From: Macrostomum hystrix
Lineage: Eukaryota > Animalia > Platyhelminthes
Assembly (NCBI GenBank): GCA_950097015.1
Contig: CATNEN010000003.1
Span: 5,518,001-5,582,000, forward strand
Direction: 5' to 3'
DNA length: 64,000 nucleotides
The translations under genes were made by a program, and so were the position numbers. Shown piece by piece: positions 22,835-56,551 of this stretch. The notes beneath the pieces were generated by a model. The model saw only the letters and a program-made list of their open reading frames with translations, was not told the DNA's origin and made no database searches. The stretch's first letter is position 1. Every line of letters begins with the position of its first letter.

Positions 22835-23093
22835 CTATAAGCCCGCGGTGTACCTGCCAGAGTTAAATGTTGGTCCACCTGGTGCAGCTGAGAGGCTATT
22901 GACTGGCGTTGGCGAACCGATAATCTCCAGATTAGGCCTATTGTGATATTCGCTACTATTTAGAGCAGCTTTATCGCCGTAATAGAAGGTTTTTGAGTCC
23001 GCCAACTGGGCCGCTTCGCGCAACGCCTGCGACTGTGGCGGCGGCGGCTGTGGTTGAACTTGTGCGGCCGGTGTTGGACGAAGCTGCTGCTGT

Positions 23094-23126
<33 letters not shown>

Positions 23127-23675
23127 GACATTGGCGGAGGTGGAGGCGGCGGTGGCGGTGGCGGTGGCGGCGGAGGCAACTGCTGAATAGGATAGCCTCC
23201 TAAAGGCGGACGAGTGTTTCTACGCTGAACTGGTTTCTGCTGCTGCTGCTGCTGCTGCTGTGACATTGGCGGAGGTGGAGGCGGCGGTGGCGGTGGCGGT
23301 GGCGGCGGAGGCAACTGCTGAATAGGATAGCCTCCTAAAGGCGGACGAGTGTTTCTACGCTGAACTGGTTTCTGCTGCTGCTGCTGCTGCTGCTGAGACA
23401 ATGGCAGCAGCTGTCGCTGTCCCAGAAGTGGCTGCTCAGATTGATTGAACTGTTGAGCAAGGGCGCGCACTTTACCAGTTCGTATGGGATTGGATTCCAA
23501 CGGTGCAGGATTATAGGAATAGGTAAGGTGACGCGGCTGACGATTCTCTGAGTACCAGAACGCTTCAGAATTGTCGCCGGGATCTTTCAATGGTTGAGAA
23601 GATGGCTGCTGTCTCTGCCGTTGCTGCTGCTGCGGCTGGACCTGTGGCTGCGTCTGCGGTGGCGGCGGCGGTGGC

Positions 23676-23706
<31 letters not shown>

Positions 23707-25708: not shown

Positions 25709-26177
25709 GGCTCTTATTTGAGCTTGGAACTTTCAATAATTATCGGCGAGTCTGCGATGAAATCTAAAATGCAAATTAATGCGCGGAAAGTCGTCTGAGT
25801 CGCGAAAACTTGCTGTCAGATTTAGTAACAATGAATAAACATTTTTCAGCTAAAACATTTAAAACTGCAAATACCAAAATGAACTGTCTACGCTCGTATA
25901 ATTACCCCTGGTTAAGCTGAAGATAATTACCCCCCTTTTAGCTGTCGATAATTATCCCAATTCAGCCGACGATAACTATTCAAATTGAGCTGTAAATAAT
26001 TACGACATTTTAATTAATTACCCCATAATTACCCCAGCTATCGGTAATTACTTCCTTTGAGCTGTCGACGAAAGTGGATATTACAACTACCTATCTGATG
26101 CGACGAAATCAAAGTTGTATTCATTTAAACCAATTATTAACAGCTATTTATAGAAACAATGGTATGCTATAACTCAC

Positions 26178-29129: not shown

Positions 29130-31411
29130 TAATCAAGAAAATCTTAGACCAGCCATGCTTCATCAACCCCAAAAAAAGTCCTAGATTTTAATTCAAATAC
29201 CCTGAAGCAGTTTGTAGACTTAGTGAAGCTAAGGCTAGTTATTAAACTTCTAAAAATCAAATCATGCTAGAAAGGACATGACTAAAGCCCAACAGTTAGA
29301 TATCTGTATTGGGCCTAGTTAAATAAATGAGTATAGATATATTTGTAATGTTATTTTTATAAAAATAATTATACTTAGATAGCTATTATATAATTAAGAT
29401 AATAGGTAAAAGTAGCTAGGAAAGCCAACTTCATTTTTTTAATGTTCCAGGCCAACTTTTTTTTGTACTGCTCCTTTTGGAATAAGTTAAAATCATTAAG
29501 ATATTCATTGGGTCTAATCTAAAATTAAAGTTAGAAATTACAAGCTCATTAACAAAAAATGAGAACTAATTGAATTGTTTGTTTTACACATTGAATTTAT
29601 AAATTATAAATTATAAATATAAATTTAGCTTTTTTTCATAAATGAGTATACAAATGAAAGCATATTTGCATTTAAACTTTAGCTACTTTACAAAGCCAAA
29701 AATACTGATATGCTAAAAGCCAAATCATATTATTCTTAATATTAGAGACAAAAAAATATTTTTTAAACCTTAACAATAGGTCGAAAAGGGAAGTAAGTCC
29801 CAGGAAGCGCATGTAGAGGTTGAGCTTTGTATTTTTGGTAATGGATGTTTAATACCTAATTGATTATGGTCATTCACAGACTCACAGTCTTTAATTGACG
29901 CACTACAATCGCAGCTCCTTACTCCTTACAACAAGTACACTACAAGACACGCACGATATCTAAAAAAATTGTTTTTGAAATCGCTCTGTAGTTATCGCAT
30001 TTAAAAAAGTGCCATTACAGCAAAACAACAACGTGTAACAACATACTTTTTGTAAAGCAAAAAAACAAACTACTGAGACTAATGCGGCAGAATAAGTAAG
30101 TAAATCAAGTAATATGAGTCTAGGTGTGGTATATTTTATGTGACACATCAACACTCCACAATAATTGATCCAGAATAGAAGTCACGTAGAAGTCCTAAAA
30201 AGAGTAAAATTGACTTGAGGTGCATACCATGGATAGACCTCTACTACACTACCACATAGTAGTAATACTACAGCTTTACTTTCTTAGATTATGTAAGATG
30301 TATATAGATATCAACATGTGTATTTTAGAAGTGCCGTCGTTTTACTTGCTGCGTCGTTTCAATAGTTGATTAAAGCGTTTCCAATTTTTCTAATTCAGTT
30401 AGCACTGAATTAAGATTCCATTGATCAAGACTTCTAATATAGTTATATAGTTATCTAATATAGTTAAATTAGTTGAATCGGCTAAGCTATACTTTAATTT
30501 TTTTGCCTGGCGACATTTTCAAGTGTTATCAAGCAGGAGTACGGTAGCCTTGCGTGGTTATACAGCTAGTCCTGCATGATCGAATATACATAACATCTGC
30601 TAGATACCTAAAATTAGCTTAATACGATTAACTTTAAGAACAAAGAATTTTGCACTTTTGTCTGAGTCGTTGTTAGAATTGATCGACATCAAAGCACAAC
30701 ATTAATTCTAGTATTGGTCACCCTTATTTTATCTCGACTGAATTATGAGAGTATATAGTACGTAAAACCGCATACACTTTCAGTTTGTTTAAGAGTACTT
30801 TTCAAAGCAACGAATCTCTTAAATTACCTACAAGGATAGCACAGATTTGCCCATTGCTCTCCATCTCCAAGACGATAGCCCCCGTAATCCCCTCCACTCC
30901 TGCCCATTGTCCAAAAATTTCCAAAACTATAGTCCCTCCTAATTCCCTGCCCTGGCTCCATTGTTAAAATTTCCCGGTCTTAAGCCCCTCTGCCAAATTT
31001 ACATGCATTTGCCCCTCCCGCTAAGTCCCTCCACCGTCAAGAGACCCTCGCGCACGTTGACTCCTCGGCCCGCCCTATGCATTCGCCTCGCGCACCCACT
31101 AATTGCCTCCAAACACAAACACTCCTATTGCCCAGCTCGCACCTTGAGCCCTCGTGCCCAGCCCAGCCAAAACACCCTTTCCCTCTCTAACCCAAACCCG
31201 ACCCATTGGCTCCCCGGCCCACCCTTGCCCAAACCAATACCGACCCCTTCCTCCTTTCACTCATTACTCTGACCCTATGCGGACCCTCATTTTTTCTCCC
31301 ATTTGTCAGTTTGTTACCCCTGCTCAACTCCCATTTGCCAACTGTAACCCCTACCCTCTTTTCATTCGCTCCCGACCCTTGCGCCTTTTAATGTAATTTT
31401 ATTATTATATA

Positions 31412-33622
31412 TGATGTGGAGTGTGCTGCAGGAATCGAGTGGGGATGTTAGCCAGCAGAATTTTTCGAAATTTTAGGCAGTTAATAATCGCGACCCAACT
31501 AGCAGCTGGCCACAAAAGCAAGTTCATTAATCTTATATAAGGCCGGGTTTGGGGCGGCGGTGATTTAAGTAGCCACCGAATCCCCTCTCCCTGGATCTGT
31601 CTAGACCCTTGTAGGAATGACTGATCGCAGCCATAACTTTATTGTATGAACTAGTTTAGGTCATAATTCCCCTCCAAACCGCGATCAGATATCGGGAATC
31701 ACTCGGGCATTATGAGTGATCATTAATTCTTCATGTCCCCTCTTCTTTACAGTATTCGAGCCCAGCTCGACTTTAAGACCTTCTCCCTTTTAGATACGAG
31801 CCGTACATGTAAATGTCACTGTAGGCAGGTCGGCGCCTGCGCTTCCCATTGTCCTGGCAGAGTAACAATCATTGGCCGACTGCCGGCGGCTGCTCGCGAG
31901 GAGCATCTGTCGTTTCCCGCCGCCGGTTCATTGGGTAATCAGGGCGGCCTATCGCCGCCCTGATACCTCGTTGACAGGCTGGCGCGAATGTGGGTTGTTT
32001 TGATGAATGTCGAGGTTGGCGTGCTGCAGGACTATTTAAGAAAGCGCGCTGCGCTGCTCCCCCTAGGACCTCCACCCAGAGACTTAACCGGCTTGCGGAC
32101 CCGTCTTCCCCGACGGACCCTCCGGACTTATCTCTCCCACTTAGGGCTTAGACCCTAGAGCTATAAGCTTAGCTAAGCGCTCACAGGCTCATTGCCTGCT
32201 CCTAATCCCCTAATAGCGCAAGCCACCTCTTTAGGTGAGCTCTCAAATTGAGCCACTGAGCTCCACTGGTGCGTTGGCCCCTGCCAGCTCGCAATTAGCT
32301 TTCCCCCTTCTCTGCCTTGTCTAATTTTGCCTTACCTCTCCCCCGAGAACTGCAGGACTGCAGCACGCGGCCGATCGGCGTTCAGATAAGTAACCCGCGC
32401 AGCGGTTATTGATTGTTATTCCAAAGGGACTTTTCTACTAGTTGGGCGGCACTTTAGTGGGAAAGGGCACTGGGACTTTTGGCTTAATATAAAGTTCGTC
32501 ACTAGCCAATCAAACTACTTTAGGCCAATTTAAGTACAATTAAATCTTTTCATTCTGTGTCCGCCTCTATTTTTATTTCTCTCTTAGACAGCCCTCAGCC
32601 ATGAGCGGCTAATTCACTAGGGGGTGGGCTCTGGTGATGCTGAGCTGAAGTTTGCGGCAGGAAGACAACTGTCAGCGCGCATAAGAGTAATAGGGCGGGC
32701 CCAAAGTGTACGTGCCGAACTCCCTTTCCAATGGAATTTCCCCCCTGTCCCCCTTTCGCAACCGCGGCCACGGGAGCGAGAGTGATGATCTAATAATCTA
32801 TCGCTTGCATAATCACTCAGCCAGTGTTCTGCTCAATCTCTCCAGCCTCTGATTTCCTTAACTCACACAGATGTGTAGGCTGCAGTCTAATGTATAGAAT
32901 GTGTCTGATGTCTTATGAGTAGGATTTCGGCTATGGATTCTCATTCAAGTTCTTAGTACCACCTTTCTAGACCCCTGTAGCGCGAATTCAGGAATCCCAT
33001 TTTGAGGCGTGTCTCGATCCATTCTGGGGCTCTCACCCCAGTCTAAAACGGAAGTTGCAGAATGCCCTATTTTTCGGCTTGTCTAGATCTGCGTGATAAA
33101 CTGGGAGCTGTGTTACTCCGGGGACCCAAGTTCCCAAATGTCTGCGGTGGCAACGTAGGCGCATTGGGTGGTGGCGCTACCCTCGATCATCTATCCGCTT
33201 TGCCGATAGCCCTTCCGCTTTTCTATGACAAGAGCCTAGGCCGATTCGACCACCGCTACCAAGGTTAGGAGTCAGTTGCGCACGTACTACTGACGACAGT
33301 AGACTAACCAGCCCTGTCCTGTCCGATTCCGGATAGTCGGACACCTCTCCTTAGACTTTTAGCCGGTTTCGAGCACTGCTTGGGGTAGGCACGGCAGTCA
33401 TGCCTGTGGCCTATGGGACGAGTGGGACTGGCCAGCCTGAGGCCGATAGGACCACTCCCTGCATCCGCTGAACCTCCCTTCTCTCTCTCCCTTCATCTCC
33501 TCCCTCTCTCCGCAACATCTCGCGAGTAGCTAGGCGGATATTTAAGTCGACTCTGTCGCCCGCCTTAGGAATCTTCTCTCATGAGGGCAGGTCAGCGGTT
33601 GCAAAACACCCAAACCATTACA
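31412..33622. mobile_element. Solo LTR (Gypsy-like), ~2.2 kb
   Basis: TG...CA termini, 4-bp TATA TSD, no long ORF. The empty site is at about 40945 in copy 2. Confidence 0.75.
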
Positions 33623-33662
33623 TATATTCAAATATACCCGCCTTAGACTCTTCACTTATTCA

Positions 33663-33700
33663 GCTCTTGATAAAGGTAAACCCGCCGAAACGCGTCGAGC
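33663..33700 (+). ncRNA. Minimal type I hammerhead ribozyme (U3-A8 core variant), Penelope-like pLTR
   Basis: GCTC-TTGATAA-A-GGT(AAACCC)GCC-GAAA-CGCG-TC-GAGC gives stems I and II plus a palindromic stem III loop. Confidence 0.7.
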
Positions 33701-34574
33701 ATTTTAAAATCGAATTCCGTTTGTCTCCCTCTTAGACTTTTTTATTAGCAGTCGACCGGAATTGGATCGGTTCCTAACTCCTAACCCTAACCCTAACCCT
33801 GATCTCTAGAGTCAGAGGCACCTCCTATTGGAGGTCGCTATTTGTAGACTTTACTAGACCGACTGCCAGCCGACTACGGCAGCAGATCCATCAACGGGAT
33901 TAACGACATCCGACGCGACATCTATTGACCTACCCGACAACGTCAGTCTCATTTCTCTAGATGAGGTAGTTTTCAAATGGGGTCCGCTCAAAGTCGATAC
34001 CCCCCTGCCTGTCGAGTCTTGTCATTTTGACGTGGGTACCACTGACTAAAGTGATTTCGGGATGCCACTTAATATCTGTAAGTAAGTCTGCGGCGTCCAG
34101 AATATTGCCGCAATTGTAGTGTATCTTCCCTATGTATTTCGTCAACTTCTAGGAAACTTTCCAGGTTAATAAAATCGAGTAGAATTCATTTAAAATCATG
34201 AAACCAACTCAGTCGCGTAGAAAATTATTTGTAGATTGATATCCTATCGAATTCGACTCGGGTAGACTGTGCTCAAATCTATTGGGCCACCCGTATATTA
34301 CTGACAGTAGTCAGAGCCGAAAAATGACGAAAGAGTAAGAAAATGTCGTCGTCAGCTACCCGGATTCTACTCTAGTCCTAACCCTAACCCAAACCCTAAC
34401 CCTAACCCTTTGCAAAATTGTCCATGTACATTTGGGGTAAAGACTTGCACTCCGTCCCAGCCAATAGGAGCTAGGTGAGTCTACTGTGGGTCAGATTTTC
34501 GACACTTAAATAAGGGCCTGGCAATCTAGTTCTATATATAATCTTTGGCCCCCACACCCCGGCTACACTTCAAA

Positions 34575-34650
34575 TTAGTGGTCTCGCCGGGGTGCGAACT
34601 TGTGCCACTGGCGCTTGAGTCGGACGCGCTGCCGCTACGCCACTCCCCCC
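34575..34650 (-). mobile_element. tRNA-like SINE head (second copy at ~41295-41366)
   Basis: A-box TGGCGTAGCGG and degenerate B-box AGTTCGCACCC on the minus strand. Confidence 0.55.
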
Positions 34651-34759
34651 TGCTGACAATTGCTAGTTGACAGGTTTATGCAGGCCGACACATCGACACT
34701 GGATCGGCCGCTTTGGTGTGCCCAGCAGCCTCACGCCGGAGTGCTGCGTCCTTCTAGGG

Positions 34760-35193
34760 CAGGGGTAGGCAAACATATTTGCTGGCGGGCCAAAGAGAGA
34801 ACCTAAAAGACGACAGCGGGCCGCATTGACTGTATAAATATGAAATAGGGGAGAGATGAGACACGGGAGAGATTAGACACGCGAGAGATTAGACACGCGA
34901 GAGATTAGACACGGGAGAGATGAGACAGGGGAGAGATTAGACACGGGAGAGATGAGACACAGGAGAGATGAGACACGGGAGAGATGAGACACGGGAGAGA
35001 TGAGACACGGGAGAGATGAGACACGGGAGAGATGAGACACTGGAGAGATGAGACACTGGAGAGATGAGACACGGGAGAGATTAGACCGAGAGAGATGAAA
35101 CAGGACACTGTAGATGTCAGAAGGGGCAACGGGCCGGATTTGGGAGCTTCGAGGGCCGCATCTGGCCCGCGGGCCGGAGTTTGCCGACCCCTG
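34760..35193. mobile_element. Non-autonomous hAT element carrying a 17-bp internal minisatellite
   Basis: TIRs CAGGGGTAGGCAAAC / GTTTGCCGACCCCTG, 8-bp TSD TTCTAGGG, empty site at about 41470. Confidence 0.9.
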
Positions 35194-35643
35194 TTCTAGG
35201 GCAATATAGTAGTCCTTGGCATGAAATCCAAAACGATGCTCTGGTATATTTTTGTAGTATTTATTCTCAGTAGTTGAGAGACAGAATAGCTAACTTTTCG
35301 TTACTTGGAAATACATTTACAGTATCTCTGAGATCGTGGGCTGGTAAATCAATCAACTTAGAAACAACGGTAAGATTTAAAAAGCTTTAGGGGTGTCACA
35401 AGATACGTTCTAATAAACAAATCAAACGTTTTTTATTATTAATGTTCACAATTGAGGGCGAGCCAATTAAAAAACGTTACATTTTATGGTTGCAACTTAG
35501 GACTTAGGACATTAAGTTTAATGAAGAAGGCTCCGAAACTACAGAGCTTTTCATAACCAAAGCCTCCTCTTCATGTTTTGTCCAGAATATTTTTTTCACT
35601 CGTAACTTCAGTTGGCGAGAAAGCGTTGCGGCATGCGCCAGTT

Positions 35644-35941
35644 CTAGGTGCAACCATCCTCCCAGGCGAAGCAGTCGCAGTTGCCTGAAAATGTCGGTTG
35701 AGTTTGTCCACTTAGAAACATGACCGCATGGTTGATTACAGGATTTCTCTCAAGCACAATGTCACTCACATCCACCCGGGTAGGGGCACCATCTGCCACC
35801 GAAAATTGTCCCAATGACCTTGCAGGCGTTGTAGTGGGTACAGCGCAGCGTACAGGACGCGCTGATTCCGGCCTCGGACTGCGGAGCCTGCAGAGCGAGG
35901 ATCAGCAACGAGAGCCCGACGGTCAAGAAGACGGAGCGCAT
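35644..35941 (-). CDS. Secreted cysteine-rich peptide, paralog 1 (70 aa, 8 Cys); exons 35941-35770 and 35684-35644
   Basis: MRSVFLTVGLSLLILALQAPQSEA|GISASCTLRCTHYNACKVIGTIFGGRWCPYPGGCNCDCFAWEDGCT*. 85-nt GTGAGT...TTTCAG intron, upstream TATAAA, downstream AATAAA. Confidence 0.85.
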
Positions 35942-36041
35942 GATCGAAACTGGTCAGATGAAATCAAGTCAAAGCACGACTGTTTGGTTTGTTCAGTGTC
36001 TCGGTTTGAGAAATTAAGGATGAAAGCTCCAAAAATCAGCG

Positions 36042-36053
36042 GTATTTATAAAG
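36042..36053 (-). promoter_or_regulatory. TATA box of peptide paralog 1 (equivalent at ~42316-42326 for paralog 2)
   Basis: TATAAATA about 100 bp upstream of the ATG in both copies. Confidence 0.55.
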
Positions 36054-37789
36054 CTAGGAGGGTTGGTGTTGCAACACTATCAGTAGCAGGCGCTCATATC
36101 TATTTAGCGGAAATTTTTGTTTCCATACTAAGCCATAGTTAGCATTGGAATTTTTTCAAGATACGAGTCCCAGATTTAGCTTATGGAAACAAAATTTAGC
36201 TTACTAAAGCAAAAAAATTAAACAACCTTATCATGAAATTGTTTTCGTTTAAGTAAAAAAAGCAAACTGCACTGTAGAAGTTCACGGCTCTGAGAGCAGC
36301 AAGAAGAAGAGGAATAAGAGAGTAGAAATAGAAGCATCTTCCACCAATTTCACGTGTTTTTTATTTGCGTCCGATAATTAGGCGAGTCTCATTGTCTGGA
36401 CAGCCGTCTCTTGCGTTGAAATTGCATTAAACTAATGAGTTACGAGTACAAAATATTCATTTTGTATTTAGTTGAATTCGTAAGCTTAAATCAGAAACCA
36501 AGCGTCTGCATCGTGCAAGCGACGAAATGCCTCGCAAAGAGGCTCTCCAGGTTTGTCAACGGAAGTCGCGCCATTTTAAATTCGCTCCGACCACTTTTAC
36601 AGCCTCCGAGTATTTAGGTTCGATGCTGTCATACAGATACATCGGGTCATGTTCGAATTTTATTTAATTGTTCATTATATTTTAAAGCTACTGCATATTG
36701 TTACGGTCCTAGTGACAATAAATGATGTTTCAATATAACAAAACGACATAATTAAAAAGGAAAATGAAATCTGATCTTGCGTATCATAATCATTCAGCTG
36801 GGCCAGAAGGTATATGATAAAGACAGAAAGATGCATGAATTAATAAAGCTAGTTAGTTAAGTTAAGTTAAGATTGCAGGGGGCTGAAGGCTTTGCCGAGA
36901 CCATTTTGGCGACAGTCAACCCTCAGCCAGCGGGGAGGCAATTCTATGCCCATTCCGCTGACCCCTGAGCACACACAGGCACACAGATACGTACGCAGGC
37001 ACGTACGCATCCTCCGCGCAGCATCCGCCGCTGAAACTTTCAAGCCTCCCTCCCATTCAAGCCTGCTGCCAGCATAATTGTATATATAGAGTTAGACCCT
37101 CCCACTATCTGTTATCCAAGAGTTACTATTAAAGCTGTTCAATTTTCTGGAGTTCAATAACTACTACGCATTCTTAGCACTTTCTGCCTGTCCTCACGTA
37201 GCTAGCTAAGCAGAGGTTGTTGAAAATTTTGCAGTCGCTTTTAATTGATCGACAAGCAAATTTCACTGCCAGTCATTCAGCAGTCAGTCAGCCAGTCAAG
37301 CTGTCAGCCTCGAAACTCTAGCCGCGTAACCATGGAATCATGAATCGATGCAAAAACACAGCCGGAAAAATTTGCTTTAGTGAGGGCTTTAACACTGTAT
37401 GAACTCCTCAATTGAGCGGATGAACGCTTCCAGCTGCAGTAATTTTCTCGTTCCTAAAGATGTATACAGAGAGTTATATGGTGGATGGATGCAGCACTGG
37501 ATGATGTAGCTGGAAGCGAAACTTTGCTGCAGCCTGCAGCTGAGTGAAGCATGAAATTCACAACCCAGCTGTGTACTTGTATTCCGTTTTGTCACTAAAG
37601 CGCTGGGTTTTACTCGTAGTTTTTGTTAAATGAAATGGCTACAGCCCCGGGTCTTTGGCGAAGATTTTCGCCGCCAACTGACCCCCAACTTAGCCTAATG
37701 AGGCGATCCAGGCTGGGTCGAAAAAAATATAATTTAAGCGGCTTCTCTGGACTATGGCGAGTAACGACAGATGGGACGGAGAATATGAG

Positions 37790-38275
37790 ACATCGTCTAC
37801 TCCATTCAGAAGCGATACGAGACGAAAGGACAGCGAAATCGGCGTCCGCCTGGTGGAACTCGCGGCGCAAAGCTGGGCGAGGAACAGACAGAGTGGCTGG
37901 TGCAACATCTTGACCGGAACCCAATGATGACGCTGGCAGAGATAGCACGATCGGTACAAGGTAGATTTGAAGGTCTTCAAGTTAGCACTGCTACAATCAG
38001 TCGAGCTTTAGACAAGCAGCTTATCACCCTGAAATGTCTGAGCCGGGATGCCGACATTCCTGCAGCGCACTTTACTCCGGAGAATCGACTTCGAAGGCGC
38101 GAATTCGCGCCTGCCACCTCTGGACACTCCACTGTGGCAGCGGCGGATTCTGGTGCTGCACAGGATTGCAGAGGAGGCCACTGGTGAGGTGACTCCTGCC
38201 AAATTCGGCGGCTGGTTCAGGCAGATGCTGCGACGAGTTCCGGCCTGCTTGGCAGGGCAGCCGATTGACGACTGA
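37790..38275 (+). pseudogene. Internally deleted Tc1/IS630-like transposase remnant
   Basis: Matches 46036-46872 with the catalytic core deleted. Confidence 0.8.
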
Positions 38276-38450
38276 GTGTTACGCCTCTTTGCGAGTAACG
38301 CCGGACACTTTCTGTGTTTCACTGTTCCCTTTAAATGTTTGAATCTTGCGTTGCATTCAACTTTTGTCGATGCATAAAGTTTAGTTAACAGTTTAATTAA
38401 TCAAAGCGTAGCATTGATAAAAAGCGTCAAAACAAAGACAATATTGTTTC

Positions 38451-38723
38451 TTGATATTGATGAATACGAAGAATATTCTAATCAGAAGTAAACTCAGTCT
38501 TGATTGGGTATTTCAGGGAAAGCGAATGAATATTTTGCACAGCATCCCAAACTTTACTGCTGGAGGACAGATGCTGGTAGAGAAACCTAATCCAGTGAAA
38601 AGAGTTGTATTGAGTAATAAGGAGATTCACGAGATTGTGCTGCAGTTTGAAAATGAAGATGGTGCTGGCATTGATTTCAACGGTGAAGAGTTTGTGCAGA
38701 CGTTGATCATTGAGAGAATTTGA
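38451..38723 (+). pseudogene. Possible Polinton/adintovirus minor capsid (penton) C-terminal fragment; copy at 47051-47323 has a premature stop
   Basis: ILHSIP...G.MLVEKP...I.EI.L.FENEDG..IDFNGEE pattern recalled from Polinton penton C-termini. Not verified by search. Confidence 0.45.
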
Positions 38724-40991
38724 GAGAAAATGTACATAGAGAGCCGTCTTCCTAAATCGAATTTTGAGCTCTATATCCAATAGAGGGGAGTGCATGTGGA
38801 GTACGCCTCTCGTCCCCGCTGTACTCTGAATTCCTGTCTTAAAGGTAACGTTTTGCATTGCACGCGCCCAGTAAAGAAATGGGAAGACTGTTGAAAGAGC
38901 TTGGGGTTGAGAAGGCAATTGAACCCTGGGCTAAAAATAGCCTCAATAGCCTAAATTTGTTTTATTAAGGAGCAAAGCTTTTTCGCTCATTTCAAGCAAC
39001 ATTTTTTCTCCGCGCGCGTGGATCAAGCGAAAAAATTTTGCTCCTTAAAAAAACATTTTTTCCGGGTTTTTTGGGTTTTTCTAACGTGTCTATTAATGGC
39101 ACTCTGAAATTAGAGACAGAAATTTTGAGAAAATCTCTTTTCTCTGAGAATAATTTTCGTCCCAGAATACTACTCACAGAATAAGGTATGTTATGTTGCA
39201 AATAGCAATTATTAACAGTGAATTATAATATTGTTAACTGATTACATATGTAAGTAACATCAAAATTGCTAGATTAATTTTTGTATTGTATAACACAACA
39301 TAGCCCTATTCAAATATGGTACTAATCTAGACACCTTGTTTTGCCTCAACTTGATAAAATTGATTGAAAAGCTTTAGGCAATTTTGTTTCCAGTCTTAAA
39401 TATTAAAATGAGTTTGGATTTTTACTTAGCTTTAAAGTGATAGTACTGCCATTGGCCAAAGCATAACACAGTAGTTACTATAGAAAATATAGTACTTTCT
39501 TGATCAGCCTAATTGATAATGCTTTAATTTAAAACCTGCTTTTTATTACATATTAATTATAGTTAAATTATTTTAAGATAAGTAATTGTAAATTCACTAA
39601 TAATGGCGCTGACACTGCTATCAAAAACGTCACAACCACTTTGCTTATAAGGGCATCTTAATTATCAGTGACAAACATTAACGAAATCTAGAGAGCAATT
39701 CCGTTTCATGGAGACTTCATGGAGCTCAGTGCGCTACATTACACGCATGACATATTGAAGATAAACGTTTTGTAGTTTGGATTAAACTAGCTGTGAGAAC
39801 AAAGCCATACGGGTCAGATAAAGTTCAATCGCAAAGCTAGAAAACATTGACTAAAAAGCCATGAGACCTATATAAGAACAGGAAAATTTCAATTAGCTTG
39901 ACATTTGTAAGCTTATCGCATGCCACAAGCCTGCGATCAAACTTCACTTTCGAGTACGTGCAACAGCGCACGCATGCAGGCATAGAAAGAGCAAATTGCA
40001 CGTCTGCACATTTTTAAATCTGGTTAGTAAAACAAGTATGTAGAGATACCCAATAATGATGAGAAATGTGATTAACACATAGCGAACAATATTAAATCAA
40101 ATTATTACTACAATGTTTTATTGTGGGCAAAAAATAAAATGTACTTTTATATAAATCAGCGTTGTTTTTGTGGCATACTTCCAACTAATAGACAACGCCT
40201 CCCTAACCACAACGCTAATCAACGCTAAATCAACGCCCACTCAATAATGGCGTATTTTACTAGCAAGGACGCCATTTCTATTTGTATGCAATAGGTAGTA
40301 AGAAAAAAGGCACGTTTTCTTTAAAAACGGAAAAATACCGCACTCAACGGTGATACAACTAACAACGGTCAAACAACGTTGTTCCAACGACGGCTGTCCC
40401 ACTGGGTATAGTCCCTCGTAATCCCCTCAATTTTGCCCATTGTTAAAATTTCCAAAAATATAGTCCCTCCTAATTCCTTGCCCTGGCCCCATTGTTAAAA
40501 TTTCCTGGCCTTAAGCCCCTCTGCCAAATTTACACACATTTGCCCCCCCCCGCTAAGTCCCTCCACTGTCAACAGACCCTCGCGCACGTTGACTCCTCGG
40601 CCCGCTCTATGCATTCGCCTCGCGCACCCACTAATTCCCTCCAAACACAAACACTCCCATTGCCCAGCTCGCACCTTGAGCCCTCGTGCCCAGCCCAGCC
40701 AAAACACCCTTTCCCTCTCTAACCCAAACCCGACCCATTGGCTCCCGGCCCACCCTTGCCCAAACCAATACCGACCCTTCCTCCTTTCACTCAGACCCCA
40801 CTCTGACCCTATGCGGACCCTCATTTTTTCTCCCATTTGTCAATTTGTTACCCCTGCTCAACTCCCATTTGCTAACTGTAACCCCTACCCTCTTTTCATT
40901 CGCTCCCGACCCTTGCGCCCATCTTTTTAATGTAATTTTAATATTATATATTCAAATATACCCGCCACACCCTAGACTCTTCACTTATTCA

Positions 40992-41029
40992 GCTCTTGAT
41001 AATGGCAAACCCGCCGAAACGCATCGAGC
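40992..41029 (+). ncRNA. Minimal hammerhead ribozyme (U3-A8 variant), copy 2
   Basis: GCTC-TTGATAA-T-GGC(AAACCC)GCC-GAAA-CGCA-TC-GAGC. Confidence 0.65.
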
Positions 41030-41884
41030 ATTCTAAAATCAAATTCCGTCTGTCTCCCTCTTAGACTTTTTTATTAGCAGTCGACCGGAACTGGATCGGT
41101 TCCTAACTCCTAACCCTAACCCTTTGCAAACTTGTCCATGTACATTTGGGGTAAAGACTTGCACTCCGTCCCAGCCAATAGGAGCTAGGTGAGTCTACTG
41201 TGGGTCAGATTTTCGACACTTAAATAAGGGCCTGGCAATCTAGTTCTATATATAATCTTTGGCCCCCACACCCCGGCTACACTTCAAATTAATGTGGTCT
41301 CGCCGGGGTGCGAACTTGTGCCACTGGCGCTTGAGTCGGACGCGCTGCCGCTACGCCACTCCCCCCTGCTGACAATTGCTAGTTGAAAGGTTAATGCAGG
41401 CCGACACATCGACACTGGATCGGCCGCTTTGGTGTGCCCAGCAGCCTCACGCCGGAGTGCTGCGTCCTTCTAGGGCAATTTAGTAGTCCTTGGCATGAAA
41501 TCCAAAACGATGCTCTGGTATATTATTTTGTAGTATTTATTCTCAGTAGTTGAGAGACAGAATACCTAACTTTTCGTTACTTGGAAATACATTTACAGTA
41601 TCTCTGAGATCGTGGGCTGGTAAATCAATCTACTAAGAAACAACGGTAAGATTTGAAAAGCTTTAAGAGTGTCACAAGATACGTTCTAATAAACAAATCA
41701 AACGTGTTTTATTATTAATGTTCACAATTGAGGGCGAGCCAATTAAAAAACGTTACATTTTATGGTTGCAACTTAGGAATTAGTTACATTAAGTTTAATG
41801 AAGAAGGCTCTGAAACTACAGAGCTTTTCATAACCAAAGCCTCCTCTTCATGTTTTGTCCAGAATATTTTTTTCACTCGTAACT

Positions 41885-42215
41885 TCAGTTGGTGCGACAC
41901 TCTTGCGTCTCTTGCCAGTTCCTGATGCAATCTTCATCCCAGGCGAAGCAGTCGCAGTTGCCTGAAAATGTCGGTTGAGTTTGTCCACTTAGAAACATGA
42001 CCGCATGGTTGATTACAAGATCTCTCTCAAGCACAATGTCACTCACATCCACACGGGCAGCGGCACCCGCCACCGATAATAGACCTAATGGGCTTGCAGA
42101 CGTTGCAGATGGCACATTGCAGCGTACAGTACGCGCTGATTCCGGCCTCGGACTGCGGAGCCTGCAGAGCGAGGATCAGCAACGAGAGCCCGACGGTCAA
42201 GAAGACGGAGCGCAT
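41885..42215 (-). CDS. Secreted cysteine-rich peptide, paralog 2 (81 aa, 12 Cys); exons 42215-42047 and 41961-41885
   Basis: Same signal peptide as paralog 1, then GISAYCTLQCAICNVCKPIRSIIGGGCRCPCGCNCDCFAWDEDCIRNWQETQECRTN*. Same phase-1 intron. Confidence 0.85.
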
Positions 42216-43931
42216 GATCGAAACTGGTCAGATGAAATCAAGTCAAAGCACGACTGATTGGTTTGTTCAGTGTCTCGGTTTGAGAAATTAAGGATGAAAG
42301 CTCCAAAAATCAGCGGTATTTATAAATCTAGGAGGGTTGGTGTTGCATCACTATCAGTAGCAGGCGCTCATATCTATTAAGCGGAAATTTTTGTTTCCAT
42401 ACTAAGCCATAGTTAGCATTGGAATTTTTTCAAGATACGAGTCCCAGAGAGGCTTGTTTTATCAATTCGGGTTACAAAAAAAATTTAGCTTACTAAAGCA
42501 AAAAATTAAACAACCTTATCATGAAATTGTTTTCGTTTAAGTAAAAAAAGCAAACTGCACTGTAGAAGTTCACGGCTCTGAGAGCAGCAAGAAGAAGAGG
42601 AATAAGAGAGTAGAAATAGAAGCATCTTCCACCAATTTCACGTGTTTTTTATTTGCGTCCGATAATTAGGCGAGTCTCATTGTCTGGACAGCCGTCTCTT
42701 GCGTTGAAATTGCATTAAACTAATGAGTTACGAGTACAAAATATTCATTTTGTATTTAGTTGAATTCGTAAGCTTAAATCAGAAACCAAGCGTCTGCATC
42801 GTGCAAGCGACGAAATGCCTCGCAAAGAGGCTCTCCAGGTTTGTCAACGGAAGTCGCGCCATTTTAAATTCGCTCCGACCACTTTTACAGCCTCCGAGTA
42901 TTTAGGTTCGATGCTGTCATACAGATACATCGGGTCATGTTCGAATTTTATTTAATTGTTCATTATATTTTAAAGCTACTGCATATTGTTACGGTCCTAG
43001 TGACAATAAATGATGTTTCAATATAACAAAACGACATAATTAAAAAGGAAAATGAAATCTGATCTTGCGTATCATAATCATTCAGCTGGGCCAGAAGGTA
43101 TATGATAAAGACAGAAAGATGCATGAATTAATAAAGCTAGTTAGTTAAGTTAAGTTAAGATTGCAGGGGGCTGAAGGCTTTGCCGAGACCATTTTGGCGA
43201 CAGTCAACCCTCAGCCAGCGGGGAGGCAATTCTATGCCCATTCCGCCGACCCCTGAGCACACACAGGCACACAGATACGTACGCAGGCACGTACGCATCC
43301 TCCGCGCAGCATCCGCCGCTTAAACTTTCAAGCCTCCCTCCCATTCAAGCCTGCTGCCAGCATAATTGTATATATAGAGTTAGACCCTCCCACTATCTGT
43401 TATCCAAGAGTTACTATTAAAGCTGTTCAATTTTCTGGAGTTCAATAACTACTACGCATTCTTAGCACTTTCTGCCTGTCCTCACGAGCTAGCTAAGCAG
43501 AGGTTGTTGAAAATTTTGCAGTCGCTTTTAATTGATCGACAAGCAAATTTGACTGCCAGTCATTCAGCAGTCAGTCAGTCAGTCAAGCTGTCAGCCTCGA
43601 AACTCTAGCCGCGTAACCATGGAATCATGAATCGATGCAAAAACACAGCCGGAAAAAGTTGCTTTCGTGAGGGCTTTAACACTGTATGAACTCCTCAATT
43701 GAGCAGATGAACGCTTCCAGCTGCAGTAATTTTATCGTTCCTAAAGATGTATACAGAGAGTTTTATGGTGGATGGGTGCAGCACTGGATGATGTAGCTGG
43801 AAGCGAAACTTTGCTGCAGCCTGCAGCTGAGTGAAGCATGAAATTCACAACCCAGCTGTGTACTCGTATTCCGTTTTGTCACTAAAGCGCTGGGTTTTAC
43901 TCGTAGTTTTTGTTAAATGGAATGGCTACAG

Positions 43932-45214
43932 CAGTGGTTCTCAACCTGTGGGTCGCGATGCAGACGATGCAACCCAGTGGGGTCGCGTGACCATTTTCTG
44001 GGGGTCGCAGTTAAAAGTGTGCGTAGAATCTACGCTACGATTCTACGCTAAGAATGCGTAGTAGTTATTGAACTCCAGAAAATTGAACAGCTTTAATAGT
44101 AACTCTTGGATAACAGATAGTGGGAGGGTCTAACTCTATATAAACAAATAAAAATATGTATTTTTTGGGGAGAACTCTTTAGAGATATTAGAGTAAAACA
44201 TTTTTAGTAAAAGTAAAAGTAAGTCAAAGTCTGTTAGCTACATTGCAATGGCTATAGCACTAGCGGCCTAGCACTTAACTTGAAGTCACAACACAAAATA
44301 TGCACGCAGTCGCAAGCTAAGCCTGTTCTGCTAGATATGGGCTGAGTCACACGACACCACACGACAAGCAAAACAAACTTTCCTTCTGTCTCCCTTCTAC
44401 CTTGTTACCCCAGCGAATTTAAAACGAACAATCGCAACTCCTTACCCAGAGGAGGAAATCCTCTCACCAATCCACCCCTACATTCAAACGCATTCCCGTT
44501 CCTTTTGGCTTAGCCGATTGGAGGCACAATATCCTGCTTATGATTAGGGTTAGATTAGGATTAGAGAGGCATCTGCCCAGATATTCAATCTCATCTGTTG
44601 TTAATGGCATCGTCTGAAACTCGCCTAAGCGCAGTTATAATGAAGCATTTCTTGAGTTAGGTTTCACAACTGCGAATGAAAAACCACAATGTGTTATCTG
44701 CGAAGTCACATTGTCAAAGGAGTCAATGAAACCAAAAAACTCAAGCGCCATCTGCAAACCCAGCACCCTGAAGTTGCGACTAAGCCACGCGAGTATACTT
44801 TGTGGAGAAGTTAAGGCGTCAAATTCCATCAGTTGGTATCACTGAACCAGCGTGCACAGGCAGCGTGCACAGGACAGAACAGTGGTGCTGTGAAACGCAT
44901 CCAAGATGTCGCGCCTGATGCTAGCTGGACACTGCTTCATCCATCGTGAAGCACTGGCAGCCAAAGACTTGTCAGCTGAACTCCACGCCGTCTTGACAGA
45001 CGTTTCCGTGGTGAATTTCATCAAAAGCCGACCTCTGAATCATCGACTGTTCACGGCACTGTGCGAGGAAATGGGGGCTGAGCACAGTTCCCTCCTCCAC
45101 ACCGAAGTTCGCTGGCTATCGCGTGGTCGCATGCTTATAAAAGGGGTCGCAAACAAACAAAAAAGATGCAAGGGAATAAATTAGGGTCGCCTGAAAAAAG
45201 GTTGAGAACCGCTG
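43932..45214 (+). mobile_element. Deleted hAT (Buster/Charlie) transposon
   Basis: TIRs CAGTGGTTCTCAACC / GGTTGAGAACCGCTG, 8-bp TSD GGCTACAG, remnants PQCVIC...KRHL (BED finger), HCFIHREALAAK and HTEVRWLSRG. Empty site at about 37640. Confidence 0.92.
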
Positions 45215-45835
45215 GGCTACAGCCCCGGGTCTTTGGCGAAGATTTTCGCCGCCAACTCACCCCCAACTTAGCCTAATGAGGCAATCAAGGCTAGGTCGAA
45301 AAAAATATAATTCCGTATTTAAGCGGCTTCTCTGGACTATGGCGAATAACGACAGATGGGACGGAGAATATGAGAAAGTTCTAGAACAAGAAAGTAATAA
45401 AATCTGGTCACATTGGCTGCACCTGAGTCGCATCAGTCTCATACCGCTATTTGTTTTGTCAGAGGCAATAACATAAAATTATCCCATGCTAATACCCAGG
45501 CACGTGATGACTCCCGAGCAACGCTACGAAAACATGATTTGGGGTTGGGAAAAATATCCCTGTTTATCTGCACGATCTTAGAAAAAAAGACAAAAGGTTC
45601 AATGCTCCTAAATATATCAAAGAGCTCTTTGCCCAGACTCTAGATTGGATTAATGATTTAAAACAACGACGGAAAATGGCTTTATTGAAAGTCACGGGCT
45701 AGAAATATCCAAAATTACATTCCGCTTTTTTGTTTTAAAAGCAGACAAATCTGTAAGAAAACAACCCGCTTGCCCTCCAATACTCCCGATCTATATTTAG
45801 TCCTTTTGATTTGCGCTGCTTAAAATCTCACTGCC

Positions 45836-46872
45836 ATGAGCGATCAGGAGCTTCTATATGGTGACGAATCAAGCCGCCAATAAAGCTACGAAACTGCTCC
45901 AGATGAACAGGGAGATGGACTGCGCCGAGGACCGTACGTTAGAATTAGCGATGAGCGGTACAACCTCGTTGTGGATGCTTTAGAAAGAGGCGAGCTTCCG
46001 GCGGATATCGCGCGCTGGCTGCAGCTCAACAAAAACATCGTCTACTCCATTCAGAAGCGATACGAGACGAAAGGACAGCGAAATCGGCGTCCGCCTGGTG
46101 GAACTCGCGGCGCAAAGCTGGGCGAGGAACAGACAGAGTGGCTGGTGCAACATCTTGACCGGAACCCAATGATGACGCTGGCAGAGATAGCACGATCGGT
46201 ACAAGGTAGATTTGAAGGTCTTCACGTTAGCACTGCTACAATCAGTCAAGCTTTAGACAAGCAGCTTATCACCCTGAAATGTCTGAGCCGGGATGCCGAC
46301 ATTCCTGCAGCGCACTTTACTCCGGAGAATCGACTTCGAAGGCGCGAATTCGCGCAATGGCTGATCGAATTGCCACTCGATCATCACCCTGTCTTCATCG
46401 ATGAAACAGGTTTTAATTAATGGACTCGAAGGTCAAAAGGGCCCAGCAGACGTGGGCAATGAATGAGAAGGGTCGTTGTCACTCAGCGAGGGGTCCAGGT
46501 GAATCTGGTACAGGCCGTGTCACCAACGGCAGGTCTTCTGCATCACAAGATTGTAGCAGCATTCCGGAGCAGTACGCAGCAAACTGGAGGGCCGTAACGC
46601 TGCCTCCCTACTCGCCCTTCCTCAGCCCTGTAGAAAATGCACATTCCTGCGTGAAAGCGGCGATCAAGCGCGTGCTTTCCCAGCCTGAAGTGCAGAGAGA
46701 GCTGGACCTGCCACCTCTGGACACTCCACTGTGGCAGCGGCGGATTCTGGTGCTGCACAGGATTGCAGAGGAGGCCACTGGTGAGGTGACTCCTGCCAAA
46801 TGCGGCGGCTGGTTCAGGCAGATGCTGCGACGAGTTCCGGCCTGTTTGGCAGGGCAGCCGATTGACGACTGA
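45836..46872 (+). pseudogene. Tc1/mariner-IS630 superfamily transposase, frameshifted
   Basis: HTH (DIARWLQLNKNIVYSIQKRY), VFIDETGFN and LPPYSPFLSPVENA motifs. Stops, frameshift and a missing middle Asp region. Confidence 0.85.
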
Positions 46873-48134
46873 ATGGTGTTACGCCTCTTTGCGAGTAACG
46901 CCGGACACTTTCTGTGTTTCACTGTTCCCTTTAAATGTTTGAATCTTGCGTTGCATTCAACTTTTGTTGATGCATAAAGTTTAGTTAACAGTTTAATTAA
47001 TCAAAGCGTAGCATTGATAAAAAGCGTCAAAACAAAGACAATATTGTTTCATGAAATTGATGAATACGAAGAATATTCTAATCAGAAGTAAACTCAGTCT
47101 TGATTGGGTATTTCAGGGAAAGCGAATGAATATTTTGCACAGCATCCCAAACTTTACTGCTGGAGGACAGATGCTGGTAGAGAAACCGAATCCAGTGAAA
47201 AGAGTTGTATTGAGTAATAAGGAGATTCACGAGATTGTGCTACAGTTTGAAAATGAAGATGGTGCTGGCATTGATTTCAACGGTGAAGAGTTTGTGTAGA
47301 CGTTGATCATTGAGAGAATGTGAGAGAAAATGTACATAGAGAGCCTTCTTCCTAAATCGAATTTTGAGCTCTATATCCAATAGAGGGGAGTGCATGTGGA
47401 GTACGCCTCTCGTCCCCGCTGTACTCTGAATTCCTGTCTTAAAGGTAACGTTTTGCATTGCACGCGCCCAGTAGAGAAATGGGAAGACTGTTGAAAGAGC
47501 TTGGGGTTGAGAAGGCAATTCAACCCTGGGCTAAAAATAGCCTCAATAGCCTAAATTTGTTTTATTAAGGAGCAAAATTTTTTCGCTCATTTCAAGCAAC
47601 ATTTTTTCGGGTTTTTTGGGTTTTTCTAACGTGTCTATTAATGGCACACTGGAATTAGAGACAGAAATTTTGAGAAAATCTCTTTTCTCTGAGAATAATG
47701 AGAATAATTTTCGTCCCAGAATACTACTCACAGAATAAGGTTTACAGAATACTACTCTGAAATTATTAAAGTAGAGAATTTAGAATTTGGAGACAGATTT
47801 TGTGAGTTGTGACCTTTTTTCCTGATCTCTTTGCAAATAATAAAGTTAATATGGAGGCTACGATAATGTTTGTCCTAGAATACTATACTCACAGAGTACA
47901 ACACACAAACTGATCTGGAATAATAAAAGTAGAGAATTTATAATATAGAGACGAAGCGGCGAGAATTTTATGGAAGGGCAAGGTTTTTTTGGAGAGGCAA
48001 TGAACCTTTTTCCCTGATCTCTTCTGTAATAATAAAGTCAACAGATTATGGATTATGGAGACTGCGTAAACAATAGGTAGCACCAAGGAGCTGGAGAATT
48101 ACTTTAATAATTCATATTAAATTTAGGGCTAGAC

Positions 48135-49855: not shown

Positions 49856-52739
49856 ATGCAATCGGAAGTTTCAGAAACGTGCTGGTAAGTGTCTGAAAAT
49901 TAGAGGGTTTAATTCAACTTTAAACTCAATTTAAACTCAAAACGGCCTGTTCTATAAAATTTGCGGATCCTCAAAGTTTCAACTTAAAGAAAATTTATAC
50001 TGCTGAGATACGAGTGAAGGAGCGAGGATCCAATTTATTTTACGAAAGCTTTATATAGGACGACACTTAGCGACTTCATATAAAAATTAAATAGAGAAAA
50101 CTCAGAATCAACATTTAAATTTTCTTAGAATTTTTCCAATGCATTTCGACCACAATCGGTCATCTTCAGGGCAGACACATCAATTAAACACACAGAACCA
50201 AGTTGTATATATATTTTTTTTAAGAAATGAAAACTGTACATTGCAAAGTGCGAATCAAATTCGGTCCAGTCCGGTTAACAAGAGAAAAAAAACAACAACC
50301 AAATAAAGTTCAACGACGCTTCTAACATAGCTAAAACACATTGAGTTGGCGGCTTGCACCCCCCAACTTTATTTGGTTGTTGTTTTTTTTTCTCTTGTTA
50401 ACCGGACTGGACCGAATTTGATTCGCACTTTGCAATGTACAGTTTTCATTTCTTAAAAAAAATATATATATATACAACTTGGTTCTGTGTGTTTAATTGA
50501 TGTGTCTGCCCTGAAGATGACCGATTGTGGTCGAAATGCATTGGCAAAATTCTAATAAAATTTAAATGTTGATTCTGAGTTTTCTCTATTTAATTGTTGT
50601 CAAGCGAGCTACTCTACCTGAATTCATATAAAAATGTTGCGTTAATAAGTAAAGCGCCACAAACATTTTACAGAATCAAACACTCATTATTCATCTAGGA
50701 GGGCCTCAGCAGATAAAGATTCAAAAACCGTGAGCGTGAAGGATCCAGTGGAAAGGAAAATGAAGCAAACCAGGGCAAGACTTTTTGTTGTTTTTATTGT
50801 TTAGGACTGTCTAGCTCTTGGTTGTTTGAGGTACATGGGTACATGCATGCGCATGCATATTTACAGGACCCGCAGTCGCACAGGATAATTGAGAAGAGGC
50901 GCCGTGACCGAATGAACAAATCGCTGAGTGATCTAAATCGCCTAATTCCATCCGCTTACTTAAAGCAGGTAAACCAATAAATCTACGAGAGTAGGTCGTT
51001 CTTTCATTTTCAAATTCAGAACTCGATTCTGAGATTCATGAATGCACTTTAAGTGTATCTAAATCGATCGAAAAAAGGATTAATGCAAAGGATTGATAAT
51101 GAATATTATTACATAACTTATGCTGCTTTTAATAATAAACGTTACAGGGTCAGGGTCGAGTAGAGAAGGCAGAAATAATAGAATTGGCAACACAGCACAT
51201 GGTGGCGCTTTCAGCCCAGCTGAAGAAATGTGAAGGTAGCGGCGAATACATAGTAAATAAATTTGGACTGAAAAATCTATGCTTCATGGACGATTGAAAG
51301 ATAACTTTCCATTATTTCAGCTATCATGGGCAATGATTTTCCTGGCTCTGAGGGCGCTTGCTGCATCGGAAAATTTTACTTAGGCTTCAGGGAGGCCAGC
51401 AAAGCAGCTGTGTCATTTCTCATCGAGCAAGGGGGCTTTAGCAGCAACGACCCTGTGTGCAGCGAGCTGCGAGCCAACCTACATAGTCTCTCCGAACGAC
51501 TTTTGCCCGGTAAGCATTAAAAATATTTTTGCTTAATTTTCGTTCTACCTTAGTACTTGAACACTGCAAGCAAGATCTTCAGCTTTGGTTAGAGATAAGA
51601 TTAGATATATCATCTATAGATACTCGTAAAGTTTGCTATTGCTTGTTATCTGTATGTGTATGTATTACTATCAGAGCGTAATAGTTAAACCTTAATGCAA
51701 TCCCAGATGACACAAATCAGCAGAAGCTGCAGCAGCAGCAGCAGCCAAATTCAGATGAGAATACGTCAGAGCTTTCCGAGCCGACCGGTCAGCCGTCTCC
51801 GGAAATGTCCTGTTACTCCACCGACGAGGCTAGAAGCGAGGCGTCCTTTGAGGCCGGCGGGAGAGACTGTGCCACTAGAGGCACTGGCAGACACAATCAA
51901 AAGAGTAGTTTTAATTCGCGGCTGGAGGTGAGGTCGGAAAATATAGCTGCAATATATACTTACACCATTTAGTTGCTGTTGAGAAGAAGTGCACCGTACA
52001 TTTAATAACTCATAACTTATATCTCATATAAAGCTCGTTCATTAACATATATGTATTGCAAGTACAATATACTTTTAATATGCTAAAATGAAGTGTCTAT
52101 ATGTCAATTCAGTCTTACGTATACATTTCTAGTATGTACTATTATACTATGCATATACACACTATAATATTTATATTCTGTATCATTATCTATATAGATT
52201 TTTGCCACTAGAAATATAAAATACTGCATTTCCAGTTTTAATGTAGCTGTTTTATCCATATTTAACATATAAAATACTATTTACATCTAAACACGGTGTG
52301 TCGGTGATCAGAGTACCAATCTGTTAATAATGAGTTCGAAAACCTAACTCCTAGCTGCTATTGGACCAAAAACTAGGCGAACGTGGCCGAAAACCGCACA
52401 TGTACGTTAAGTCGAAAGCGCCGGGCAACGTCACCCCTTCCTGACTCTGGAGGTCCGACTTCTCAATACACAGATAGTGTCGGTTTGTTAGGATCACATG
52501 ACGAAGCTGTCAAAGACGCAGTGGAGGCTGAGCCAGCCCAAGAGACAGAGGCCTTCTTGCCAGGCTTTGTGCTTCACGAGTCGGGAACTTACTACGAACC
52601 TGTGGTGATCCCTCAAGCAAGTCTGGGGGAAGAGAGGCTAGGCCGGTGTCGCCAGCCGCTGCACCCGGTGTCCATCCCGGTTAATTTCCGGACTACGCGG
52701 TTCATTCGCACTGACCAGTCGGCTGGGTCGGATGCCTGA
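49856..52739 (+). CDS. cwo: bHLH-Orange repressor clockwork orange. Exons 49856-49884, 50699-50729, 50867-50968, 51148-51235, 51321-51509, 51707-51927, 52377-52739.
   Basis: [28 protein letters not shown]...[14 protein letters not shown] bHLH, Orange domain ([16 protein letters not shown]), cwo-type C-terminal [12 protein letters not shown] and [10 protein letters not shown], no WRPW. Splice phases are consistent. Confidence 0.85.
50088..50622 (+). mobile_element. Penelope-like element remnant (inverted pLTR pair) in cwo intron 1
   Basis: ~230-bp near-perfect inverted arms with a ~45-bp spacer, 13-bp TSD TTCATATAAAAAT, hammerhead motif in each arm. Confidence 0.8.
50507..50546 (+). ncRNA. 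Minimal type I hammerhead ribozyme
   Basis: TGCC-CTGAAGA-T-GACC(GATTGT)GGTC-GAAA-TGCA-TT-GGCA. Antisense copy at ~50136-50175 has a stem I mismatch. Confidence 0.75.
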
Positions 52740-56101: not shown

Positions 56102-56224
56102 GTCGAATCCTAGGATAAGATCCATGCATTCTACTAGAAATCTACCGATTCTAGAACACTGCAAAAAGATATAACGCAATCTGAATACATATTATTACAG
56201 CAGCATCAAAAACTGACTTTCACA

Positions 56225-56551
56225 ATGAGACGCTTTCTTAGCTGCACTCTCATCGCCATCAGCCTAATGATCACCTGTCAGACTAATCTGAGCGCAGCCG
56301 CTCCGCCAGCTGCAGTCTCAAGCGACATAAAGTCAAGTAGGGCCATAGACAGTGGACGGCTAGCCGCGAATGAGGACCTATCAGTGATGTGCAAGAGGCT
56401 GGGGTGTTACTGGCACCGCATGGCAACTAGCTGCAGCTGTCCAAAACAGCAGCATCGTCTATCGAACCGTCAGAACGAAGACTTTGAAGAAGACTTAATG
56501 TCGAACTACATCAAACGCTCGCCGCCGCGTAAGCCGCCAGGAATCTGGTGA
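56225..56551 (+). CDS. Secreted peptide prohormone-like precursor (108 aa)
   Basis: Signal peptide, four-Cys segment, acidic spacer, KR site releasing SPPRKPPGIW, canonical promoter upstream. Confidence 0.75.
   Translation: MRRFLSCTLIAISLMITCQTNLSAAAPPAAVSSDIKSSRAIDSGRLAANEDLSVMCKRLGCYWHRMATSCSCPKQQHRLSNRQNEDFEEDLMSNYIKRSPPRKPPGIW

Follow-up and report, generated by a model that had tools for sequence, protein, structure and literature searches.

The locus considered here raises the question of whether two small spliced genes of the flatworm Macrostomum hystrix are real, whether their cysteine-rich products diversify under selection, and what such peptides may do. The window analysed is a stretch of 64,000 nucleotides (nt) of contig CATNEN010000003.1 (assembly GCA_950097015.1, positions 5,518,001 to 5,582,000), and all positions below are counted from its first letter. 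Two two-exon genes lie on the minus strand, 6.3 kb apart and inside a tandem duplicate, with ATG codons at 42215 (gene 1) and 35941 (gene 2); no third copy was found in the 64-kb window. Gene 1, the upper copy, encodes a long form (precursor of 81 amino acids (aa), mature peptide of 57 aa with 12 Cys), and gene 2, the lower copy, encodes a short form (70 aa and 46 aa, with 8 Cys) that is 11 residues shorter. Both peptides are predicted to be secreted, the signal peptide being cut after residue 24, and neither precursor contains a propeptide or a dibasic site. Two spliced genes had already been proposed by a model that saw only the letters of this DNA (hereafter the sequence-only reading), and the gene models bear this out. 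The same reading let the lower gene run to a TGA at 35608; this has to be corrected, as gene 2 stops at an in-frame TAG (35646-35644) after 70 aa, with 8 Cys. The TAG is not a sequencing slip, because it is also found in contigs of two public runs, X1 (35591-35744, 0 differences) and X10 (35589-35684, 0 differences). The X1 contig is independent-looking DNA, yet the window may itself derive from X1.

Parts of the stretch are present in 13 public runs, none of which is recorded as RNA, and six of these (X1, X2, X5, X9, X10 and X11) were examined. In contigs of four of the six, from three studies (X2, X5, X9 and X10), the 85-nt GT-AG intron is skipped, so that the splice junction expected from the sequence is directly seen. 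First, X2 and X5, which come from two studies and carry the window's own organism label, have one contig each that is identical to gene 2 exon 1 over 182 nt, with exon 1 joined straight to exon 2 and the intron without cover. Secondly, a contig of X9 skips exactly 85 nt with the intron ends, and X10 contains spliced variants in its contigs, one of which is the spliced long-tail form. No splice joint is present in X1, which behaves like DNA, and the contigs of X11 reach the 3' flank only. Because the intron is missing and the run is small, X2 appears to be an RNA run, though its record suggests DNA. Gene 1 itself was not seen spliced, nor was it seen at all in X2 and X5, but contigs cannot show absence. 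Short and long forms are both present under two other organism labels. Taken together, the genes are real, and their structure, their splicing and the expression of the short form are observed.

The two copies were compared part by part. The 24 codons of the signal peptide are identical (0/72 nt differ), the introns differ at 2/85 nt (98% identity), and the noncoding DNA differs at 33/2201 positions in total, with a flank divergence of 1.5-2%. In the shared mature region, 18 or 19 of the 45 aligned codons differ, depending on gap placement; all of these change the residue, a one-codon indel is present, and the number of purely synonymous codon differences is zero. The sequence-only reading had given the same picture for signal, introns, indel and silent changes, and of its figure of about 17 differing codons, all residue-changing, only the count was too low. 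Nonsynonymous mature sites differ at 22/107, against 32/1471 for the noncoding DNA of the duplicate (P 3e-13) and 2/85 in the enclosed intron (P 7e-5), and synonymous mature sites (2/28) show no clear excess over noncoding DNA (P 0.13). When 22 changes were scattered neutrally, zero silent codons were obtained in 0.4-2.5% of the trials (20000 per setting). A pairwise maximum-likelihood codon model gave an omega of 5.9-6.3 (P 0.02) under one gap placement. These values point, with moderate support, to positive selection on the mature region.

Three observations tell against selection. Under the other gap placement omega falls to 3.0-3.4 and is not significant (P 0.07-0.09), nor is it by counting (dN 0.22-0.24, dS 0.055-0.093, Fisher P 0.08-0.11). 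A third copy, found in X1, carries synonymous changes and gives a pN/pS of about 1.7 (16/71 against 3/22, P 0.28), a hand count that excludes the gaps around codons 50-51 and in which codons 43-47 are perhaps misaligned. Moreover, the flanks are not a clean clock, because they contain a conversion-like tract: the upstream segment 36230-36959 differs from 42518-43247 at 1/730 nt, compared with 2.2% in the other noncoding parts (P 3e-5), and likely reflects either gene conversion in the recent past or constraint on a regulatory region. The positive selection claimed by the sequence-only reading thus has moderate support: omega is raised (3.0-6.3), its significance varies with gap placement and method (P 0.02-0.09, Fisher P 0.08-0.11), and the ratio is lower with the third copy (about 1.7).

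One alternative is that the adaptive signal is weak or absent, the mature regions being older, relaxed or allelic and their flanks homogenised by conversion, or the copies being uncollapsed haplotypes. The near-identical upstream segment, the differences at about 2/28 synonymous mature sites, the silent changes of the third copy and the loss of the tail in one copy would all fit. However, an old neutral region should have given about 3.5-5 silent codons where none is seen (P 0.004-0.025), the eight core cysteines are kept in both copies, and the intron lying inside the variable region remains 98% identical. In addition, three variants occur at equal depth (79-84) in X1, and short and long forms recur in the two other labelled organisms. 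We consider this explanation quite improbable. Beyond the stop of gene 2, the former tail differs at 11/33 nt against 11/414 in the remaining 3' flank (P 3e-8); for this reason its divergence most likely took place before coding was lost. A special mutational bias was considered and rejected, since the mature region has about 9 transitions to 13 transversions (counted by hand) and the flanks 12 to 17. The identity of the signal peptide was likewise rejected as evidence of constraint: it is unsurprising because the flanks diverge by just 1.5-2%, and it lies within chance (P 0.2-0.3).

Further variants are present in the public runs. In X1, exon 1 occurs as three equally deep variants (79, 83 and 84), namely gene 1, gene 2 and the third copy, which has 21 substitutions and a two-codon insertion. 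X9 carries an exon 1 in which states of gene 1 and of gene 2 are combined, together with both short and long tails, and X10 adds two further variants. The mature sequences number at least six in total, that is, at least four beyond genes 1 and 2, and different individuals or strains carry different variants. The cysteines of the variants were read by hand in gene-2 numbering. Eight core cysteines (30, 34, 40, 52, 58, 60, 62 and 69; spacing 3-5-11-5-1-1-6) have no listed change where they are covered, the residues within CxxxC differ among copies, and the number of cysteines across variants is 8, 10 or 12. Gene 1 and one X10 contig have Cys at both 56 and 79, and gene 2 and the other X10 contig have it at neither (4/4 phased); the reading of codon 79 in X10 is provisional and holds among the differences listed. 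A possible counter-example is X9, which is unphased, has no listed change at codon 56 and has the long tail. At positions 37 and 54, gene 1 has Cys twice and the other fully read variants (4/4) have Tyr twice, a weak case of pairing because it is one single event. The paired extra cysteines suggest that disulfides 37-54 and 56-79 may have been added to the core.

The search for relatives was made throughout with exon pieces rather than with the whole spliced peptide. Among proteins of 30-104 aa in the protein collection, exon 1 of gene 1 and a two-sequence exon-1 alignment returned one candidate each and no match, and an exact look-up found none of four sequences (0/4). Exon-1 and exon-2 pieces had no real match in Pfam at E up to 1 or 10; a DUF6069 match (E 0.12) on the signal region was rejected. 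No relative appeared among the sequences of the Protein Data Bank (best E values 0.26, 1.4 and none). In ESM Atlas the best score was 0.80, a lead only, and the mature part alone had no usable match. Of 591 pattern matches in metagenome contigs, none was confirmed. Three short peptide motifs of the family were not found in the literature, nor was a description of it by title or abstract start, few subscription papers being covered; the rows displayed of the flatworm table of Irvine et al. 2023 held no member by motif. In a model of a 35-residue exon-1 fragment, a helix at 4-23 spans CxxxC (pLDDT 70, pTM 0.36); the model had no Foldseek match, and its best VIA-align Z was 3.9, to unrelated helices. 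The family is probably undescribed, no named relative having turned up with the exon pieces, and the proposal of a spliced, secreted-looking, rapidly diversifying Cys-rich family is supported. Its evolutionary pattern is already well known, as in the mussel myticins and CRP-I.

The comparison with known systems is as follows. The sequence-only reading had been reminded of the CS-alpha-beta fold by CxxxC...CxC. The framework of this fold, in the part of the source available, is Cys1...Cys2-X3-Cys3...Cys4...Cys5-X-Cys6 (PMC5234102). Both motifs are present here, CxxxC at 30/34 and CxC at 58/60/62 in gene 2, with the same core in gene 1. The likeness does not go further, however, because no Cys precedes CxxxC in either copy: CxxxC holds the first two mature cysteines and the canonical framework is absent. 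In the defensin fold a helix and two strands are joined by the bonds Cys1-Cys4, Cys2-Cys5 and Cys3-Cys6; the structure model here spans the 35-residue exon-1 fragment and its single helix. CS-alpha-beta defensins are also mostly cationic and amphipathic, and the two mature peptides have net charges of -1 and 0 (K, R, D and E counted), the exon 1 part being +3 and the exon 2 part -3 or -4.

Closer in pattern are the mussel myticins, which, in the portion of the source covered, have a conserved signal, a hypervariable Cys-framed mature part, individual repertoires and a charge of -2 to +4 (PMC7356231). Myticins and mytilins share with the present peptides a signal peptide, an 8-Cys mature region with CxxxC, positive selection and individual repertoires; low charge and paired loss of cysteines are also shared, as pseudomyticins lose Cys1 and Cys5 (same portion of PMC7356231). 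In contrast, the peptides here place CxxxC first, with the core spacing given above and 8, 10 or 12 Cys, and their coding sequence is divided between two exons, the phase-1 intron falling within a Cys codon; the exon pieces gave no sequence match. Mytilus CRP-I (MgCRP-I) is a lineage-restricted secreted Cys-rich family with a conserved signal, a hypervariable mature part and positive selection; the sections seen of its description report a propeptide, six invariant cysteines arranged as C-C-CC-C-C and, in most cases, a positive charge (PMC4558851). The present peptides differ in lacking a propeptide and any adjacent CC, and they contain 8-12 Cys. They share the evolutionary pattern of myticins and CRP-I and, judged from sequence, are members of neither. 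From the same genus, the M. lignano fAMP-LP groups 61, 149 and 504 (e.g. BOX15_Mlig016917) are, in the displayed part of their table, secreted with CxxxC, one middle Cys and CxCxC, as here, and in group 61 the first cysteines, compared by eye, are spaced 3-5 as in the present peptides (Irvine et al. 2023). These groups have only six Cys, a propeptide ending in KR and an unrelated signal peptide, and are AMP-like peptides by computational prediction; their homology to the peptides here is at most putative.

Conotoxins and other venom peptides also combine a conserved signal, a hypervariable mature region and a kept Cys frame, and a conotoxin-like precursor consists of signal, propeptide and Cys-framed toxin expressed in a venom gland. 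The peptides might accordingly be offensive or anti-predator ion-channel toxins from rhabdite or pharyngeal glands, to which the venom-peptide-like precursor architecture, the omega and the termicin, lycotoxin and conotoxin clusters of ESM Atlas (0.77-0.78) would be suited. These scores, however, lie below the 0.9 lead threshold of the tool and are reached by shuffled proteins too, the mature part alone having no usable match. The precursors have no propeptide or dibasic site, no matching framework and no Pfam match, and the papers found on Macrostomum toxins, rhabdites and secretion are not about such peptides by title or abstract start. To our knowledge, Macrostomum is not known as venomous. 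Nothing that points specifically to a toxin, one of the options of the sequence-only reading, was found, and a toxin appears very improbable.

Another possibility is a signalling, recognition or protease-inhibiting peptide, such as a pheromone, a self-recognition cue or an antistasin-like inhibitor with CxxxC as its reactive loop. The near-neutral, polymorphic and disulfide-rich nature of the peptides, with residues of CxxxC that vary among copies, would be in keeping with it, and the CxxxC...CxC spacing is reminiscent of that of an antistasin subdomain. Neither antistasin, a domain that would here span the intron, nor any other Pfam domain matched the exon pieces (E up to 1 or 10), and an additional Cys and the 17-23 residues from CxxxC to CxCxC speak against antistasin. 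This explanation seems unlikely.

We prefer the reading that the two genes encode secreted, disulfide-locked defence effectors which arose by recent duplication and may be diversifying under selection by microbes or parasites, with a probability of roughly 0.4. Flatworms lack the canonical lophotrochozoan groups of antimicrobial peptides and are expected to have their own, according to the part seen of a survey that included M. lignano (PMC10414684). Apart from the doubts about selection given above, the defence reading is weakened by the lack of a cationic charge (net 0 to -1), by the missing CS-alpha-beta framework and by CRP-I, for which assays revealed neither antimicrobial nor toxic activity (PMC4558851, seen in part).

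The chief competitor is a reproductive peptide, of the seminal fluid or otherwise, that the prostate glands would produce and the partner would receive during mating, with sperm competition or sexual conflict with a receptor of the partner as the driving force. It is a real rival because M. lignano has 76 prostate-limited transcripts, 31 of them without BLAST match; 38 of the 65 translated ones have a signal peptide (PMC5977470, part of the source). Reproduction-related genes evolve faster in Macrostomum, as the portions consulted of two studies report (PMC8662610; PMC7336406), and a neutral charge is compatible with a receptor ligand. On the other side, the 30 of 76 rows visible in the prostate table are transcripts labelled as WSC-domain, fibrinogen-like or glucanase-like or as lacking a match, and the whole file has 0 occurrences of cysteine, defensin, toxin and antistasin, a weak point since the table contains no sequences (PMC5977470). 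Defence and seminal fluid are not separable by the present analysis, and we hold the seminal role to be possible, if on the unlikely side. If it is correct, the peptide would be a short ligand for tests of sexual conflict in hermaphrodites.

For the preferred defence effectors, a mechanism may be sketched. The 8-Cys core would form four disulfides, the N-terminal CxxxC helix being tied to the C-terminal CxCxC, and the extra pairs 37/54 and 56/79 (the latter with the acidic tail) would supply a fifth and a sixth bond. The variable residues between the cysteines could then form a binding surface that tracks a fast-changing partner. Because the net charge is 0 to -1, plain lysis of membranes would be less likely than binding to a protein or surface target. 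New variants would be supplied by duplication and by conversion between copies, together with selection. A broader proposal, which we regard as doubtful, is a flatworm-specific hypervariable immune (or mating) family that switches between 4, 5 and 6 disulfides and gains or sheds an acidic tail on a CxxxC/CxCxC scaffold, perhaps a permuted, independently evolved defensin-like fold in a phylum from which such peptides are reported to be missing. In any case, an expressed and apparently positively selected small Cys-rich family is a direct candidate for undiscovered flatworm antimicrobial peptides in a genus with RNA interference and in situ methods, and the paired gain or loss of cysteines in very young copies offers a handy case of disulfide-framework change.

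Table 1. Coordinates of the two genes and of the duplicated blocks that contain them.
Feature	Position	Strand	Remark
Gene 1 predicted signal peptide, codons 1-24	42144..42215	-	from sequence; hydropathy peak 3.0; cleavage site by eye
Gene 1 coding exon 1, 169 nt	42047..42215	-	encodes the signal peptide and the hypervariable part of the mature peptide
Gene 1 intron, 85 nt, GT..AG	41962..42046	-	phase 1, splits a Cys codon
Gene 1 coding exon 2	41885..41961	-	ends in TGA
Gene 1 TATA-like box	42319..42324	-	109 nt before ATG
Gene 1 candidate poly(A) signal	41708..41713	-	AATAAA
Gene 2 predicted signal peptide	35870..35941	-	same as that of gene 1
Gene 2 coding exon 1, 172 nt	35770..35941	-	0 differences to X2 and X5 contigs
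Gene 2 intron, 85 nt, GT..AG	35685..35769	-	skipped in X2, X5, X9 and X10 contigs; unspliced in X1
Gene 2 coding exon 2	35644..35684	-	ends in in-frame TAG 35646-35644
Gene 2 untranslated remnant of C-terminal tail	35608..35643	-	coding in gene 1; 11/33 nt differ
Gene 2 TATA-like box	36045..36050	-	109 nt before ATG
Gene 2 candidate poly(A) signal	35432..35437	-	AATAAA
Duplicated block with gene 2	35194..37645		96.3% to 41468-43932 over 2470 columns; larger tandem unit ~30875-39187
Duplicated block with gene 1	41468..43932		larger tandem unit ~40408-47741

The tandem units also contain an IS630/Tc1-like transposase split by a stop (45884-46872, plus strand; HTH_32 and a weak DDE_3), and a copy with an internal deletion lies in the other unit (37790-39187). 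Elsewhere in the window, an ankyrin-repeat/SOCS-box gene (8279-9421, plus strand) is 92% identical (350/381) to M. lignano BOX15_Mlig009209g2, the next of 14 matches being at 35%; this suggests a Macrostomum species near M. lignano but probably not M. lignano itself. An open frame of 965 aa (22835-25732, minus strand) with a high content of Q, P, S and R has no Pfam match and probably represents one large exon of a protein of low complexity. At 56168-56551 (plus strand), a single-exon open reading frame of 127 aa begins like a signal peptide and contains a KR site and four Cys at spacing 4-8-1; with no Pfam match and no entry in the protein collection, it is a candidate second secreted peptide or neuropeptide precursor. 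A long, nearly perfect inverted repeat (50082-50598, arms of 140 and 87 nt) resembles a miniature inverted-repeat transposable element. Finally, the C-terminal half of a C-type lectin-like domain (59121-59450, minus strand; PF00059, E 0.076) lies beside a 21-nt tandem array that starts at about 59283 and extends almost to the end of the window.

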